Shown here in pieces: positions 43,121-51,903 of a stretch of DNA of 64,000 nt. Numbering within the stretch: the stretch's first letter is position 1; every line of letters begins with the position of its first letter. The stretch comes from a bacterium (GTDB taxonomy: Bacteria > Patescibacteriota > Minisyncoccia > Phycocordibacterales > UBA5272). Made by a program: the position numbers and the translations under genes. The stretch lies in the NCBI GenBank assembly GCA_023267595.1, contig JAHFNB010000001.1, positions 94,590-158,589 on the forward strand, read 5' to 3'. The notes beneath the pieces were generated by a model, which saw only the letters and a program-made list of their open reading frames with translations, was not told the origin of the DNA and made no database searches.

Positions 43121-44239
43121 GTGAATAACACTATCGGTGTTTTTAGTCAGAATGATTTAAAGAAGATGGTTGAAAATCGTCGCTTAGTACCATGTGAGGG
43201 ATTTTCTCCCGAACATATTGGTACGGCATCCGTTGATTTGACTTCGACTGGAGAAGCATATCAACTTCGCCGGTTATTTCAACCAAGTCAAATCAAGAGT
43301 GAATCTATTCGCGATCTACTTCCTTTTATGGACCCTGAATCGAAACCCCTTGGGTCTACGCTTGAAGTTGGAAGCACAACAATAACCAAAGCAAGTCTCG
43401 AACCAAACTTTCCGCCGGGTATTTACGGATATCTGAATGCAAAATCAAGTTCTGGTAGGAATTTTCTTTTTGCAAGATCACTTGCAGATGGTCAGAACAT
43501 GTTTGATTCTGCAGATCGCCGTGAAAGGGGGTATTCCGGAGAATTATGGATCGTTATTCAACCATTAGCCTTTCCAGTTATTCTTACCAATAAGGAAAGG
43601 TATGATCAGTTGCGAGTATTTAATGGTGATACGCGATTCAAACAACAAGATCTTGATAATCTTTTGCTCAATCACGATCTTTTGTATCGTAGGGAAACTC
43701 AAGAACCATACAAACACGGTGACCTATCACTGTTTACCCACGATGGTTCCATTCTTTGTACGCTTTATGCACCTGCTCGTGAACTCATTGGGTATCGTTG
43801 TAAAAAAAATACGCCACCGGTTGATCTTACAAGGAGAGATATTGATCCCAGAGATTATTTTGAGCCGGTGTATGCCGAGGAAAAAATAGTCGATGGTAAG
43901 AAAATAAGTTTCGTTAAGGTTGAAGGGGGTTACTATTACCTTCTTTCTACAAACGAAATGATTAAAGTTCCAGAGACACACACTGCAGAATTGGTAGCGC
44001 TTGATACACGGCTTGGGTTTTTCTTTAGTCATTTTGCAGGATTTTTCGATAACGGATTTTTCGGGACCGCAACACTCGAGATTTATTCTCCGTTTACGAT
44101 TTGGCTTCGGCATAAACAACCGGTTGCACGATTTGTTTTTGAAAAACTTCGCTCGGAAGCACCGTCGTATGGTGAAAAAGGGACGTATCAGTCACAGATT
44201 GAAACACAACTCCCTAAGCAATTTCTTCCGTGGGAATGA
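43121..44239 (+). CDS. dcd: 2'-deoxycytidine 5'-triphosphate deaminase (long-form DCD family)
   Basis: GTG start with GGAG RBS. The N-terminal region resembles dCTP deaminase. 372 aa. GC-rich. Confidence 0.6.
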   Translation: MNNTIGVFSQNDLKKMVENRRLVPCEGFSPEHIGTASVDLTSTGEAYQLRRLFQPSQIKSESIRDLLPFMDPESKPLGSTLEVGSTTITKASLEPNFPPGIYGYLNAKSSSGRNFLFARSLADGQNMFDSADRRERGYSGELWIVIQPLAFPVILTNKERYDQLRVFNGDTRFKQQDLDNLLLNHDLLYRRETQEPYKHGDLSLFTHDGSILCTLYAPARELIGYRCKKNTPPVDLTRRDIDPRDYFEPVYAEEKIVDGKKISFVKVEGGYYYLLSTNEMIKVPETHTAELVALDTRLGFFFSHFAGFFDNGFFGTATLEIYSPFTIWLRHKQPVARFVFEKLRSEAPSYGEKGTYQSQIETQLPKQFLPWE

Positions 44240-44289
44240 TTATAGGCAGGACCTCAAGAGTCCTGTTTTCTTTTTGGTATAATGAACAT

Positions 44290-44709
44290 ATGAAATTATT
44301 TGTTAAAAAAATGCGTGATGATGCGAGACTGCCGACACGTGCGCATCACGATGATGCAGGTATTGATTTGTATTCATGTGGTAATCATATTGTTCATCCA
44401 CAACAGACACTTATGATTCCAATTGGAATTGCACTTGAAATAGAAGAAGGTTATGTTGGTTTAATTTGGGATAAATCAAGTATTGGATCAAAAAGTATAA
44501 AAACATTAGGTGGTGTGATAGATGCAGGGTATCGGGGAGAATTAAAAGTAATGGTGCATAATTTAAGTAATGAATCCTACACATTTGAACATGGTCATAA
44601 AGTAGCACAGATAGTAATTCAAAAAGTAGAATTTCCAGACATAGTTGATACAAAAGAATTATCGGATTCAAAACGAGGAACAGGAGGATTTGGAAGTACG
44701 GGGAAATAA
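44290..44709 (+). CDS. dut: dUTP diphosphatase (dUTPase)
   Basis: dUTPase motifs AGIDLYS, GLIWDKSSIG, GVIDAGYRGE and RGTGGFGSTG. Confidence 0.85.
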   Translation: MKLFVKKMRDDARLPTRAHHDDAGIDLYSCGNHIVHPQQTLMIPIGIALEIEEGYVGLIWDKSSIGSKSIKTLGGVIDAGYRGELKVMVHNLSNESYTFEHGHKVAQIVIQKVEFPDIVDTKELSDSKRGTGGFGSTGK

Positions 44710-44742
44710 AAAAGAGGCCATAATGCTTGTAGCCTCTTTTTG
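44708..44742. terminator. Bidirectional terminator between dut and the thyX-like gene
   Basis: aaaagaggc-cataatgcttgta-gcctctttt. Confidence 0.6.
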
Positions 44743-44752
44743 AAGTATCGAA

Positions 44753-45793
44753 CTATTCCTCAAATGCGAGGATGAAATCTACGAGAGCCTCATCACCACG
44801 ACAACCAATAAGCAGTTCCTCTCGTGAGATGAGTTTTGTGAAGTCATCTTCTGAAGGGAGTGTTTTTCGGTATTGTGTCCACACTTCGGAATAGTTACCA
44901 TTACTTCCAATAGGATCACTTTCTTCACGTGGGCGTGCTGGGTGTTCGAATGGGGACATATGGCCACTTGCTTGCAAATCGTTCGCCAGACTAACATCCT
45001 TGTCAAGTGCACGAATACCATCATGAGTTAGATAACTGGTCCGTGCACATTTTCCAGAAGAGGCTCTGGCCAAAACTAACTGGTCTTTTTCTTCTGCCTT
45101 GTCTTCTTCTCGAATGTATGGGAGATGCCATTCTCCTTTAGAAAGTTTTATAGGAGAACTGTTCATCATTGCACGTGCAATTGCAATACCGAAGTCTTGT
45201 GCTTCTGGTTGAGCCTTTGCACTCGGGCGGAGACCGAAAAAATTTCTCCAGTACGACGAAGTCACAATGACGACGTGAAAGGCGTATGTTTCCAAAACAC
45301 GATTTGCATGCTGCTTATGGAGTCCTTGGTCTTGAGATGAAAAAAACTGACCCATACCATATTTTTTTACCATCTCTTCAAGTTCTGCACAGAGTTTCTC
45401 TGCGGCCGGATTTTTTTTTGAATCCTTCAGGATCTGATCATATCCGCCGACGAGGAACATTGCTTGAATCACAGCAATATCTCTTCCGGTTAACCAGTTG
45501 GCAACTGCTTTTTTCTTGTCATTATCGGAAAGTTCCAGTTCAGCCTGCATCCCTGCCTTGTTCACTCCGAAGGAGTGAGGAATATAGGGATTTTTCAAGA
45601 CAGAAAGCAAACGTTTCCAGACAGGAATTGCACGCGAACTCGCAGAATTTCTTGCGAATTTTCTGTGTGTATTGAATTCGGCAAGATAGGGCCGAGGAAA
45701 TTCGACCTCGACAGAAGTCAAGCGAGATCTTTTATAGGAACTGTCGCAGATGATGCGAGCAGAGGCTTTCCCTTCAGTGTGAAGTTCTTGCAT
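44753..45793 (-). CDS. thyX: Flavin-dependent thymidylate synthase ThyX-like protein (atypical motif order)
   Basis: THRKFARNSASSRAI approximates RHRxxSxNxxSxRY. AQPEAQDFGIAIARAMM approximates AQxEIRxxA. A HMSPFEH motif occurs near the C-terminus rather than the N-terminus. ATG at 45793 has an AGGAG RBS. The track ORF starts at TTG 45808. Confidence 0.55.
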   Translation of the reverse strand: MQELHTEGKASARIICDSSYKRSRLTSVEVEFPRPYLAEFNTHRKFARNSASSRAIPVWKRLLSVLKNPYIPHSFGVNKAGMQAELELSDNDKKKAVANWLTGRDIAVIQAMFLVGGYDQILKDSKKNPAAEKLCAELEEMVKKYGMGQFFSSQDQGLHKQHANRVLETYAFHVVIVTSSYWRNFFGLRPSAKAQPEAQDFGIAIARAMMNSSPIKLSKGEWHLPYIREEDKAEEKDQLVLARASSGKCARTSYLTHDGIRALDKDVSLANDLQASGHMSPFEHPARPREESDPIGSNGNYSEVWTQYRKTLPSEDDFTKLISREELLIGCRGDEALVDFILAFEE

Positions 45794-45952
45794 GATTACT
45801 CCTAACAATTGGTTATTAAAAGGACTGTAGTATTAGAAACAACTTCTCAAACTCTACATGAAAACATAATGATAAGCAAATCTTGTCAAAAGTTACTTTT
45901 ATTTGTATTTGTAGTACGATATCTTGTGTAGAAGTTCATTCAATTAAGGGGA

Positions 45953-46540
45953 ATGATCATGTCCGCAAGACTTGCACCGTTTATTGTTTTTTGTGGAATT
46001 GATGGTTGTGGAAAGACATCAGCCATCAAAGCAGTAGGGGAGAAATTTCCCACGGTAGATACTACACGAGAACCAGGAGGTACTCCTCTTGCAGAAAATA
46101 TCCGCAACTTACTCTTATCAGAAAAAGGAGGGATACTTTCTCCTTTAGAGCAAATGCACCTTTTCTTTGCGGGGCGTCACATTCATATTCATGAAAGGAT
46201 TCTTCCAAAAAGAAAGAGTGGCATTCCAGTAGTTTCTGATCGTTTTGATGGAAGTACATTCGCTTTTCAACGTTGCCTTAGTTTGGTTGCAGAGAAAATA
46301 GAAATTAACCAACCACTGTACGAAGAATTTTTCCGTTTGCGTGAACAAGTAGTACATCATTGTGAACCTTCTCTTTATATCTATTTAGAAGTTGATCCGG
46401 TAATTGGAATGAGAAGGCGCGCTTTTGCACGTGAACAAGAACTTAATCATTTTGATTTGGCGAATATCGAAGAACAAAAACGCCGAGCAGTTTCGTACCG
46501 TACCTTTTTTAAACATATACGTACGCGGGGTATCTCGTGA
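45953..46540 (+). CDS. tmk: Thymidylate kinase
   Basis: FIVFCGIDGCGKTSAIKAV P-loop. TREPGGTPLAENIR. Confidence 0.75.
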   Translation: MIMSARLAPFIVFCGIDGCGKTSAIKAVGEKFPTVDTTREPGGTPLAENIRNLLLSEKGGILSPLEQMHLFFAGRHIHIHERILPKRKSGIPVVSDRFDGSTFAFQRCLSLVAEKIEINQPLYEEFFRLREQVVHHCEPSLYIYLEVDPVIGMRRRAFAREQELNHFDLANIEEQKRRAVSYRTFFKHIRTRGIS

Positions 46541-48462: not shown

Positions 48463-51400
48463 ATGTCAGAGTCTAAGAATGTACCAAAGAGTATCAATGA
48501 AAAAGAGTTAGAAACACTTGCTTTTTGGCAGGAACATACAATATTTGAAAAGTCAGTAGAGACTCCTGCAGGTGATGTACCAAAAGGTAGTTTTTCTTTT
48601 TATGATGGTCCTCCATTTGCAACAGGGCTTCCTCATCATGGAACACTTATGGCAGGTACGGTAAAGGATATTATTCCGCGATATCAAACAATGAAAGGAA
48701 ATAGTGTTCGTCGTAAGTGGGGGTGGGATTGTCATGGTCTTCCAATAGAAAATCTAATTGAGAAGAAATTAGGATTAAAGAGTAAAAAAGATATTGAAGA
48801 CTTGGGTATTGCTACGTTTAATAAACATGCACAAGACAGTGTTCTTCAGTATGAATCAGAATGGAAAGAAATAATTCCTCGATCTGGAAGATTTGTCGAT
48901 ATGGATCATGATTATAAAACAATGGATGCAACATATACCGAGAGTGTATGGTGGGCATGGAAAACATTATACGAAAAAGGACTTGCCTACGAAGGATATA
49001 AAATGATGCATATTTGTCCACGTTGTGAGACCACACTTGCACAATCAGAAGTAGGAATGAACTACGAAGATGTTACTGATTTATCAGTAACTGCAAAGTT
49101 TGAACTTACTGATGAACCACAGACATTTGTTCTTGCATGGACAACAACACCGTGGACTCTTCCGGGGAATACGGCACTTGCTCTTTCACAAGATGCAGAG
49201 TACCTAAAAATAAGAGTAGGTGGAATGGAAGGAATGTATATTCTCGCGAAAGAAAGAATTGCTGATGTTCTTCAAGAAAAAAATTATGAAGTTATAGATA
49301 CGTTTAAGGGTTCGAAACTTATTGGTAAGTCATATAAACCAGTATTTCCATATTTTATTAATACAGAGATTGATAATAAAGAAAATATTTGGAAAATATG
49401 GCATGCAGATTTTATTACCCTAGATACAGGGACAGGTATTGCACACGAGGCACCCGCATTTGGTGCAGATGACATGGAACTCGCAAAGCAACATTCTATT
49501 CCTGTGATCAAGCATGTGCTTATGGATGGAACATTTACACACGATGTTACTGATTTTGTTGGCATGAAGGTAAAAAAAGTCGGAGATACGCAATCTGCTG
49601 ATATTGAAATCATTAAATATCTCGCACACAGTGGATCCTTATTTGAAAAACATAAAATAGTTCATTCCTATCCACTGTGTTGGCGATGTAAAACACCACT
49701 TCTTAATTATGCAACGTCGAGTTGGTTCATTGATGTGCCAAAAATGAAACCAACATTATTATCTGAGAATCAAAAAATAGGTTGGACTCCAGAACATATT
49801 CGTGATGGTAGATTTGGTAAATGGCTAGAAGGGGCACGTGAATGGGCAGTATCTCGTACTCGTTACTGGGGAGCGCCACTTCCTGTATGGAAAAATAAAG
49901 ATGGTGAATTGCTCGTTATCGGTTCTCTTAAAGAACTTGCAGAAAAAAATAAACAAAAAGTAAAGAATATATACTTTGTAATGCGTCATGGAGAAGCAGA
50001 GAGTAATGTAAAAGGTATTATTGATAGTAGTGGAGACACGACTAATGGGCTTACAGAAAAAGGCAAAGAACAAGTACGTACAGAAATAAAAAATCTTTCT
50101 CAGAAAATTGATCTTATTATCTCGTCTCCATTTTTACGTGCACAAGAAACAGCAGAGATTGTACGACAAGAATTGGGAGATGTTCAAATTATAGTTGATG
50201 AGAGATTGAAAGAGTTTCAATTAGGTATTTTCGACAAAAAACCAATAGAAGAATATTATAAAGTATTTTCCTCAATCACCTTAGATACGGTAATTACAGG
50301 AGGTGAAACTCATCGTGATATGTTCACACGTGCAATGTCAGTATGGAATGATTTGGAAAAGAAATATGAAGGAAAAAATATTCTGATAGTAACACATGGT
50401 GGTCCAGCATGGATGTTAACTGTCGGTACATCACTGATCACTGATGAAGCAATTAATGAATCAATGAAACATCTTGGTACTGGAAATTGGGTTCCAAATG
50501 CAAAGATTATCCCTCTAGAACCCCTCATTGTTCCACGAGATGAGACTGGAAACATAAATCTTCATCGTCCATACATTGATGAAGTAGAACTAGAAGTTGA
50601 TGGTGTTACATATACAAGAATTCCTGATGTGTTTGATTGTTGGTATGAGTCAGGTGCTATGCCATTTGCATCTCTTCATTATCCATTTGAAAATAAAGAT
50701 ATTTTCGATAAAAATTATCCAGCAGATTTTATTGCGGAAAGTATGGATCAAACACGAGGATGGTTTTATTCACTTATAAACTTAGGGGTAGGGCTATTTG
50801 ATAAAGCACCGTACAAACACGTTATTGTAAATGGGCTTATCAATGCAGCAGATGGGAAAAAGATTAGTAAAAGTTTAAATAACTATACTGATCCATTAGA
50901 ATTAATTGCAAAGTATGGAGCAGATGCATTTCGTCTTTACCTCATGTCTAGTTCTGTAGTAAAAGGAGAAAGTGTTAATTTTAAAGATGAGGATCTCGAT
51001 GGTGTTTACAAACGTTGTATTCTTAGACTAGAGAATGTTATGTCTCTCTACGAAATGAATAAACCAGAATCTGTGATACCACTATCTTCTTCAGATCATA
51101 TTCTTGATATGTGGATTATAAGTAGGCTTCATGAAGTTATTCAAGAGGCAACGCATGGATTTGATACGTATATGCTCGATGATGCAGTACGACCGTTTGA
51201 TCAGTTTATTGATGATGTTTCTGTTTGGTATATACGACGTTCACGTGAACGATTAAAAGGGGACTCTGGAGAAGAAGATCAAAGGATGGCCTACGGGACT
51301 CTCACTTACATATTACAAACGTTTGCAAAGACTATTGCACCAGTTATGCCATTTATTGCAGAGCGTCTTTACAAGCAATCAGGAGGAGAAAAAGAGTCTG

Positions 51401-51903
51401 TTCATCTCGAAAAATGGCCAAGTATAGGAGAGATTCATGAAGGTATACTTGCGGAAATGAAAATGGTTCGTGATGTAGTTTCACTTGGACTCATGAAGCG
51501 AACAGAAGTAAAGATAAATGTGAAACAACCGCTACTTTCTATTATGCTTAAACAAGATATTAATCCTAAGTATTTTGACGTTATCAAAGATGAATTGAAT
51601 GTAAAAAATGTTTTTATTCACGCCTCACAATCAGATGAAGTTAAACTTGATACCACAATAACTGAAGCATTACAAAAAGAGGGAGATATTCGCAAACTTA
51701 TTCGTGCTATACAAGATGCACGAAAAGAAAAAGGATTATTGCCACAAGATAGTATTGTGTTAACCTTATCTTCTGTTAGTGGTCTTGGGAATATTTCATT
51801 ACTTATTGCTACATGTAAAATCTCTGAAACAAGAGAAGATGCAAGTATTAAAGATAATTCGGTAGAATTATCTTCTGGAATTATATATTTTTCTATTGTC
51901 TAA
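48463..51903 (+). CDS. ileS: Isoleucyl-tRNA synthetase with an embedded histidine-phosphatase (PGAM-like) domain
   Basis: IleRS signatures PFATGLPHHGT, WTTTPWTLPGN and KISKS. The residue 502-687 segment carries RHGEAESN, SPFLRAQET and IVTHGG phosphatase motifs, in-frame. Confidence 0.85.
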   Translation: MSESKNVPKSINEKELETLAFWQEHTIFEKSVETPAGDVPKGSFSFYDGPPFATGLPHHGTLMAGTVKDIIPRYQTMKGNSVRRKWGWDCHGLPIENLIEKKLGLKSKKDIEDLGIATFNKHAQDSVLQYESEWKEIIPRSGRFVDMDHDYKTMDATYTESVWWAWKTLYEKGLAYEGYKMMHICPRCETTLAQSEVGMNYEDVTDLSVTAKFELTDEPQTFVLAWTTTPWTLPGNTALALSQDAEYLKIRVGGMEGMYILAKERIADVLQEKNYEVIDTFKGSKLIGKSYKPVFPYFINTEIDNKENIWKIWHADFITLDTGTGIAHEAPAFGADDMELAKQHSIPVIKHVLMDGTFTHDVTDFVGMKVKKVGDTQSADIEIIKYLAHSGSLFEKHKIVHSYPLCWRCKTPLLNYATSSWFIDVPKMKPTLLSENQKIGWTPEHIRDGRFGKWLEGAREWAVSRTRYWGAPLPVWKNKDGELLVIGSLKELAEKNKQKVKNIYFVMRHGEAESNVKGIIDSSGDTTNGLTEKGKEQVRTEIKNLSQKIDLIISSPFLRAQETAEIVRQELGDVQIIVDERLKEFQLGIFDKKPIEEYYKVFSSITLDTVITGGETHRDMFTRAMSVWNDLEKKYEGKNILIVTHGGPAWMLTVGTSLITDEAINESMKHLGTGNWVPNAKIIPLEPLIVPRDETGNINLHRPYIDEVELEVDGVTYTRIPDVFDCWYESGAMPFASLHYPFENKDIFDKNYPADFIAESMDQTRGWFYSLINLGVGLFDKAPYKHVIVNGLINAADGKKISKSLNNYTDPLELIAKYGADAFRLYLMSSSVVKGESVNFKDEDLDGVYKRCILRLENVMSLYEMNKPESVIPLSSSDHILDMWIISRLHEVIQEATHGFDTYMLDDAVRPFDQFIDDVSVWYIRRSRERLKGDSGEEDQRMAYGTLTYILQTFAKTIAPVMPFIAERLYKQSGGEKESVHLEKWPSIGEIHEGILAEMKMVRDVVSLGLMKRTEVKINVKQPLLSIMLKQDINPKYFDVIKDELNVKNVFIHASQSDEVKLDTTITEALQKEGDIRKLIRAIQDARKEKGLLPQDSIVLTLSSVSGLGNISLLIATCKISETREDASIKDNSVELSSGIIYFSIV

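Follow-up and report, generated by a model that had tools for sequence, protein, structure and literature searches.

A ThyX homologue with a non-collinear order of segments in Patescibacteria and phages

The gene and the order of its segments

The window analysed here is a stretch of 64,000 nucleotides from a Parcubacteria-type Patescibacteria genome (assembly GCA_023267595.1, contig JAHFNB010000001.1), and our subject is a gene on its reverse strand, at 44753-45793, which encodes a protein of 346 amino acids (aa). We regard it as practically certain that this protein is a homologue of the flavin-dependent thymidylate synthase ThyX in which the segments of the chain follow each other in a non-collinear order. 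The original prediction, made from the letters alone, had offered a circularly permuted or otherwise divergent ThyX or, alternatively, an unrelated family that mimics the ThyX motifs, and had put the protein at about 100 aa longer than typical ThyX; the surplus over the 220-aa ThyX of Thermotoga maritima is indeed ~125 aa. The gene and the parts of its product are given below. Conservation figures, here and later, refer to 164 diverse family members, and residues were mapped by alignment to the T. maritima numbering (prefix Tm).

44753-45793, reverse strand: coding sequence of the rearranged ThyX, an uninterrupted open reading frame for 346 aa with its TAG stop at 44753-44755
45799-45803, reverse strand: AGGAG, Shine-Dalgarno-like, 5 nt upstream of the ATG at 45793 (read from the sequence)
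45734-45781, reverse strand: residues 5-20, N-terminal beta-hairpin, proposed equivalent of beta1-beta2 (order of elements in the models)
45623-45727, reverse strand: residues 23-57, segment B, with beta3, a helix and the ThyX motif (hhalign and residue map)
45329-45451, reverse strand: residues 115-155, a helical stretch inserted only in the Patescibacteria subfamily (alignment gaps; helical in the model)
45152-45328, reverse strand: residues 156-214, segment C (hhalign, HMMER match to TM0449, conservation)
45083-45151, reverse strand: residues 215-237, linker with the family-invariant W222-H223-x-P225 (H223 and P225 100% in the 164 members)
44939-45082, reverse strand: residues 238-285, relocated segment A', with alpha1, alpha2 and the PFEH element (hhalign, HMMER against the PDB, helices)
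44756-44938, reverse strand: residues 286-346, C-terminal tail with the motif G299-N300-x4-W305-x-Q307-x-R309-K310 (conservation)

The start position at 45793 is the same in homologues. The columns of residues 115-155 are gaps in ~70% of the diverse family members, and the last ~25 residues of the tail (~323-346) are likewise specific to the Patescibacteria subfamily; within the tail motif, R309 is conserved at 99% and both Q307 and N300 at 91%. No canonical counterpart of the linker was found by hhalign.

The relationship to ThyX was evident at the level of profiles and of the fold. The Pfam model Thy1 (PF02511) matches the protein with an expect value (E) of 5.8e-8 and 33.2 bits, above the cut-off of 24.8, and PHROG 85, annotated 'thymidylate synthase', covers residues 24-315 with E 2.6e-47. 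The AlphaFold2 model, built on 58 homologues, has a mean pLDDT (predicted local distance difference test) of 90.9 and a pTM (predicted template modelling score) of 0.86, and every structural match in the fold search was of the ThyX fold, with a target-normalised TM-score of only ~0.5 in Foldseek. The three motifs that had been noticed from the letters were all placed by the alignments. The RHR/Ser-like motif near the N-terminus (FNTHRKFARNSASSRAIP, residues 40-57) contains the THR...SSR that corresponds to Tm R78-R90; the AQxEIR-like helix in the middle of the protein (AKAQPEAQDFGIAIARAMM, residues 192-210) is the AQPE helix that comes after Arg174; and the H-x-S-P-F-E-H motif near the C-terminus (SGHMSPFEHPARP, residues 276-288) contains GHMSPFEH, the His53-His59 element.

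In canonical ThyX the order is beta1-beta2, then segment A (alpha1-alpha2-PFEH, with Ser30 and His53), then segment B (beta3 and the ThyX motif) and finally segment C (the helical and beta4 region with Arg147 and Arg174). The order in the window protein is beta-hairpin, B, C, linker, A' and tail. Within segment B, T42-H43-R44...S52-S53-R54-A55 stands for Tm R78-H79-R80...S88-G89-R90-Y91. Segment C holds H159-K160, N164-R165 (the Tm R147 region), beta4, N184 (Tm N169), R189 (Tm R174) and the Q195-P-E197 helix, and segment A' holds R251 and S253 (Tm R28 and S30) as well as G-H278-M-S280-P-F-E283-H284 (Tm H53-H59).

This order was recovered with HMMER and with hhalign. A single-sequence phmmer search against PDB sequences gave two stretches in inverted order, and a profile of the 58 homologues matched TM0449 (whole-sequence E 1.4e-10) with profile positions 241-291 on chain residues 31-79 and positions 131-215 on chain residues 128-213, both matches being significant. 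The 164 diverse family members were then compared by hhalign with a canonical ThyX set (given as 124 sequences, or as T. maritima with 118 others), whose sequences came from phage records, PDB alignments and a full-length search and which included the T. maritima sequence, rebuilt from PDB alignments and 100% identical to PDB chain P0315. Residues 25-216 aligned with Tm 61-201 (P 97.0%, E 1.1e-10) and residues 243-288 with Tm 20-63, the helix pair with Ser30 and His53 (P 96.8%, E 3e-10); the relocated segment on its own matched canonical ThyX with E 7.8e-8. When residues 236-285 were shifted in silico to before residue 23, the two matches merged into one collinear alignment over Tm 20-199, and the hhalign score rose from 78 to 144 (E from 1e-10 to 2e-21). 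The Thy1 search proposed with the original prediction passed its cut-off, and the profile and hhalign matches rule out an ordinary collinear alignment.

The arrangement is a property of the family. Hidden Markov models (HMMs) of the canonical segments were run on 352 family members and 119 canonical ThyX proteins. Segment A was detectable in 289 of the 352, near the C-terminus in every one of them, and in the 241 of these that also showed B or C it always followed them; none of the 352 had segment A first or duplicated. Among the canonical proteins, 118 of 119 read N-A-B-C and the remaining one, which is N-terminally truncated, reads A-B-C. An earlier survey with smaller profiles had the same outcome. 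The homologue search suggested with the original prediction has been answered in the same sense, as the arrangement recurs in thousands of sequence clusters.

The tail was also considered as a place for a degenerate second ThyX motif, since one hhalign run put W305-x-Q307-Y-R309...N-E315 opposite W-F-R78-H-R80...N85-E86. This candidate was rejected: the tail (286-346) alone does not significantly resemble either canonical ThyX or the N-terminus of the protein itself, better profiles end the A' match at residue 288-294, and a second B match was seen in 0 of the 352 members.

Type of rearrangement and rival explanations

The models were compared element by element, with strands as E and helices as H. 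A canonical, T. maritima-like model starts with E2-5, E9-17, H20-29, H38-50, H55-59, E61-69, H70-77 and E83-86, and its later part includes E154-163, H164-174 and H181-197. The model of the window protein (elements by DSSP) starts with E5-7, E10-20, E23-33, H34-40 and E47-50 and later has E172-179, H183-188 and H196-210, followed by H238-249, H263-275 and H280-283, the A' helices that stand against canonical H20-29, H38-50 and H55-59. The hairpin therefore leads directly into the beta3 equivalent in the model, and the three helices that separate the two in canonical ThyX turn up after the core. This order suggests that the alpha1-alpha2-PFEH unit alone has left its place between beta2 and beta3 and now lies on the C-terminal side. 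Because the predicted order of elements keeps the N-terminal hairpin before beta3, we favour the relocation of a segment over a clean circular permutation. The rearrangement could plausibly have arisen by tandem duplication, with complementary losses afterwards; evolutionary intermediates with A at both ends or with duplicated cores were absent among the 352 family members, and the long relatives are carriers of inteins, not duplications. The protein is presumed to form a tetramer and to have kept its N-terminal hairpin, and A' would occupy the canonical alpha1-alpha2 site of its own or a neighbouring subunit.

Other explanations of the inverted order have to be weighed against this one. That the protein belongs to an unrelated family with look-alike motifs, or is a canonical collinear ThyX that has been misread, could be argued from the single-sequence phmmer search against the PDB, whose E values were only 0.006-0.2; after testing, no support for this was left, given the profile and fold evidence, the two independent out-of-order matches and the fact that the sole collinear alignment (E 2e-21) needs the re-ordering. 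We give it practically no chance, and mimicry, the alternative named in the original prediction, is ruled out by the Thy1 score together with that re-ordered alignment. Equally dismissed is an artefact of assembly or annotation, be it a chimeric contig, a shifted reading frame or two gene fragments joined into one, because the same architecture occurs in 4,874 sequence clusters, 467 species genomes and 1,034 phage records, isolate genomes included, and the gene itself is an uninterrupted reading frame with a ribosome-binding site before it and a terminator-like hairpin after it. A strict circular permutation deserves more attention. Here the whole canonical N-terminal part, beta1-beta2 as well as alpha1-alpha2, would now stand after the old C-terminus, as could result if a tandem duplication were trimmed at both ends; the GEWHLPYI linker (residues 220-227) would then be the old beta2 and the hairpin 5-20 a new addition. 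The B-C-A order is just what such an event predicts, and the sequence scores, to the disadvantage of our preferred explanation, do not discriminate between the two: the re-ordering design of the permutation equals the segment-swap design (144.2 vs 144.0 in local and 140.0 vs 140.3 in global alignment). There is also a likeness by eye, given without a statistic, between L-S-K-G-E-W-H-L-P-Y-I of the linker and the canonical L-D-K-G-F-V-E-L-V-D-V. However, the model has no hairpin at residues 215-237, where a short helix and single bridge residues are all that is seen, and these residues show no similarity to the canonical N-terminus in hhalign or HMM searches, whereas residues 5-20 are modelled as a two-strand hairpin with the position and lengths of canonical beta1-beta2. 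In sequence, hhalign and the HMM searches found no similarity of these residues to the canonical N-terminus either. Thus it is unlikely, in our view, that the protein is an exact circular permutation, and the relocation of the alpha1-alpha2-PFEH unit is the explanation that we retain. Of the original wording, the non-collinear order and the divergence have stood, and the circular permutation in its exact sense probably has not.

Active-site residues, neighbouring genes and probable function

Three subunits meet at the active site of ThyX. There deoxyuridine monophosphate (dUMP) is bound and polarised by Arg90 and Arg174, the alpha1-alpha2-PFEH unit of the canonical enzyme contacts flavin adenine dinucleotide (FAD), and the ring of the folate or pyridine nucleotide lies over the flavin with His53 stacked on it. 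The equivalents in the window protein, with their conservation in the family, are as follows.

Tm H79: H43, 99%
Tm S88: S52, 100%
Tm R90: R54, 100%
Tm N169: N184, 99%
Tm R174: R189, 100%
Tm R147: N164/R165, 95% / 99%
Tm R28: R251, 95%
Tm S30: S253, 99%
Tm H53: H278, 99%
Tm T55: S280, 95%
Tm E58: E283, 91%
Tm H59: H284, 99%

The set that binds dUMP and FAD or folate (Tm S30, H53, S88, R90, R147 and R174) maps by alignment to residues that are at least 95% conserved, and the residues required for ThyX chemistry are present, one of them contributed by the relocated unit. The ThyX motif RHRxxSxxxxSxR reads T42-H-R-K-F-A47-R-N-S-A-S52-S-R54 in the window protein, and the family consensus is THRxFSRNSASSR, with the equivalent of Tm R80 being Arg in only 84% of the family. 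In some relatives this motif is interrupted by inteins: in three sequences that were read (P0219, P0260 and P0275) the insertion separates THRxF from SRNSASSRA, and the +1 residue is Ser. It is characteristic of inteins to target essential catalytic motifs. Inteins were also seen in P0243, P0287 and P0314, and one of the inteins in the family has an HNH endonuclease.

Compared with canonical ThyX (TM0449, PBCV-1 A674R, M. tuberculosis Rv2754c and H. pylori ThyX), the clade shares the motif loop with H79, S88 and R90, Arg174, Asn169, the Gln-x-Glu helix, Ser30 and the element His53-x-S/T-P-F-E-His59, and the window gene shares the pathway context of dut and tmk. The clade differs in that alpha1-alpha2-PFEH comes after the catalytic core instead of between beta2 and beta3, in the additional invariant motifs NxxGMQ, HKQ, WHxP and GNFxxWxQxRK, and in a length that is greater by ~50-125 aa.

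The genes next to the rearranged ThyX gene, and the hairpin between two of them, are the following.

43121-44239, forward strand: two-domain dCTP (deoxycytidine triphosphate) deaminase (DCD_N + DCD_C), 372 aa, which makes deoxyuridine triphosphate (dUTP) (Pfam, NCBIfam)
44230-44709, forward strand: dUTPase, which makes dUMP, the substrate of ThyX (Pfam dUTPase, E 1.3e-28)
44709-44741, no strand assigned: hairpin between an A-run and a T-run, amid the convergent stops of dut and thyX (sequence and RNA fold)
45953-46540, forward strand: thymidylate kinase (tmk), divergent to thyX, which uses thymidylate (dTMP) (Pfam Thymidylate_kin, E 3.1e-23)

The RNA fold of the hairpin has -13.7 kcal/mol and a z-score of -3.4 against shuffled sequences, and from its sequence it is likely a bidirectional intrinsic terminator. 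The dCTP deaminase is of the long type and its gene overlaps the start of the separate dUTPase gene by 10 nt, so that both enzymes are encoded. The wider order is one of housekeeping genes: nusG, rplK, dcd, dut, thyX, tmk, argS, a gene for a class I tRNA synthetase and recO. This last synthetase (48463-51903, forward strand), a protein of 1,146 aa with tRNA-synt_1 and Anticodon_1 domains and similar to IleRS or ValRS, carries a domain of the histidine phosphatase superfamily (His_Phos_1, E 6.5e-31) at residues 505-653, and this insertion interrupts the match to the catalytic domain. The synteny rplK-thyX-tmk-argS is repeated at related Patescibacteria loci, and tmk lies within the 4-kb flank at 14 of 80 related loci, all 14 of the Patescibacteria type. 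Phage copies adjoin genes for dCTP deaminase, a deoxynucleoside monophosphate (dNMP) kinase or ribonucleotide reductase.

Since dcd, dut and tmk flank the gene, its product most likely makes dTMP. We consider it probable that the protein is an active flavin-dependent thymidylate synthase whose chain has been re-threaded, and that it serves this Parcubacteria-type cell in that role. The folded protein would rebuild a ThyX-type active site at its subunit interfaces, where H43, S52 and R54 of the ThyX-motif loop, R165, N184 and R189, together with S253 and H278 of the relocated unit, would bind FAD, dUMP and methylenetetrahydrofolate (CH2-H4folate). The reduced flavin would then transfer a hydride, along with the methylene group, to dUMP, which becomes dTMP. 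The neighbouring Dcd and Dut would supply the substrate, the first by turning dCTP into dUTP and the second by turning dUTP into dUMP, and the neighbouring Tmk would take up the product.

Several observations count against this assignment. The NCBIfam equivalog model for thyX, TIGR02170, gives the protein 38.8 bits, below its cut-off of 87.9. Throughout the family Tm R78 is replaced by Thr (T42, 95% Thr) and Y91 by Ala (A55, 100% Ala), E86 has become Ser or Ala and Tm R165 Thr or Ser. No assayed member of the clade was found in the literature searched, and none is known to have been assayed. One could argue that the protein keeps the ThyX fold and flavin chemistry and catalyzes a changed reaction, acting on another nucleotide (PolB, for instance, methylates UMP), stopping at hydroxymethylation, or using another one-carbon donor or reductant. 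A changed substrate or donor is possible because the canonical residues are replaced, and the score under the equivalog cut-off and the invariant positions that have no canonical partner (G81-M82, K160, H223, P225 and R309) point the same way. However, dut, which supplies dUMP, and tmk, which uses dTMP, flank the gene, tmk is nearby in many Patescibacteria relatives, and the gene neighbours of the phage copies belong to the same metabolism; the equivalents of S88, R90 and R174, which hold the phosphate and uracil of dUMP, and of the folate-stacking His53 are nearly invariant; and the carrier phages are not known for replacement of thymine. A changed reaction thus seems improbable to us, and synthesis of dTMP remains the preferred assignment. 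A related idea is that the relocated helix pair, K160, H223, R309, G81-M82 and the Thr in place of Arg78 together make up a re-wired active site and not a neutral re-threading. It could be that a neighbouring subunit receives the C-terminal unit in an oligomer of another kind, or that the cofactor or one-carbon donor has changed, which could matter under the minimal folate metabolism of Patescibacteria. We think this improbable; if true, there would be a third type of thymidylate synthase with a mechanism of its own, represented by this clade and in use by many phages.

Distribution of the family and its meaning

The family is large. A full-database search, counted in clusters at 50% identity, returned 4,874 at E<=1e-3, 4,056 at E<=1e-10 and 1,372 at E<=1e-30, most members being 270-350 aa long, and a word-indexed search returned 2,522 proteins at 90% clustering. 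The closest word-indexed matches come from metagenome-assembled genomes of the Parcubacteria type and are labelled 'hypothetical protein' or ThyX. The gene is present in 467 species-representative genomes, which are Patescibacteria and, as a large block with complete chromosomes among them, Solirubrobacterales (Actinomycetota). The Solirubrobacterales proteins (loci L033-L090, for example L040 and L045) are ~300 aa long with ~43-45% identity, and their genes are surrounded by ordinary genes of the chromosome (AMP-binding enzyme, transporter, GGDEF protein), not in a cluster of the pathway to deoxythymidine triphosphate (dTTP).

Among isolate phage genomes 1,034 records match, 930 of them over at least 80% of the query. 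The carriers include ICP1, PAK_P1, Mx1, Mic1, N4-like coliphages (St11Ph5 gp30), phiCbK-like phages and rV5-like phages, and their copies are annotated as thymidylate synthase or hypothetical. In Escherichia phage vB_EcoM-ECP26 the gene seems to be split into products of 245 aa and 97 aa (BFVD A0A4Y5TVX3 and A0A4Y5TVY4), both annotated as thymidylate synthase, and in Flavobacterium phage Fpv3 (hit H37) the match coincides with an annotated HNH endonuclease; an intron or the insertion of a homing endonuclease could explain both. The N4-like coliphage St11Ph5 (L009) has the rearranged ThyX, and the thymidylate synthase of Dinoroseobacter phage DS-1410Ws-06 (H42) is 43% identical to a T. maritima fragment of segment C, as in canonical ThyX, which suggests that one form of ThyX has displaced the other within the N4-like phages. 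Gordonia phage Gill (L005, 757-1818) has a ThyX of 353 aa in canonical order with an N-terminal extension of ~120 aa.

Known systems resemble the clade in part. PolB of Streptomyces cacaoi (PDB 4P5A) is a ThyX homologue with an altered substrate range, a C5-methylase of uridine monophosphate (UMP) and dUMP in polyoxin biosynthesis. We take it to retain the canonical collinear order, and its gene lies in an antibiotic gene cluster and not among genes of the dTTP pathway. The ThyX-fold structures recovered in our searches (T. maritima, T. thermophilus, M. tuberculosis, H. pylori, PBCV-1 and PolB) are, as far as we have checked, collinear as well. ThyA, the classical thymidylate synthase, has an unrelated fold, uses no flavin and oxidises folate to dihydrofolate; the net reaction from dUMP to dTMP and the position in the pathway are presumably the same as those of the window protein, which had no ThyA-fold match among its structural matches, all of the ThyX fold. 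In ANME-1 archaea a highly divergent, virus-derived clade of ThyX, shared between viruses and cells, serves as the cellular thymidylate synthase, with no rearranged segment order reported (Laso-Perez et al., 2023; PMC9894754).

The enzyme class as such is not new, since thymidylate synthase is already the annotation of many family members. In a full-text literature search no description of a permuted or rearranged ThyX was found, and a 2018 review of flavin-dependent thymidylate synthases does not mention one; the rearrangement of the chain, the size of the clade and the residue changes appear to be unreported in the literature searched. A practical consequence concerns annotation. The strict thyX model misses the proteins of the clade and many of them are deposited as 'hypothetical protein'; therefore, the dTMP step seems to be missing in Patescibacteria and in phages like PAK_P1. 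Inhibitors directed at the canonical ThyX site may not transfer to the clade, because Arg78, Tyr91 and Glu86 are replaced.

For the phages, the clade offers a candidate for the thymidylate synthase of ICP1, the N4-like coliphages, Pakpunavirus and the phiCbK-like phages. For the ThyX family as a whole it is a natural experiment on how an active site that is built at subunit interfaces tolerates the re-threading of its chain.

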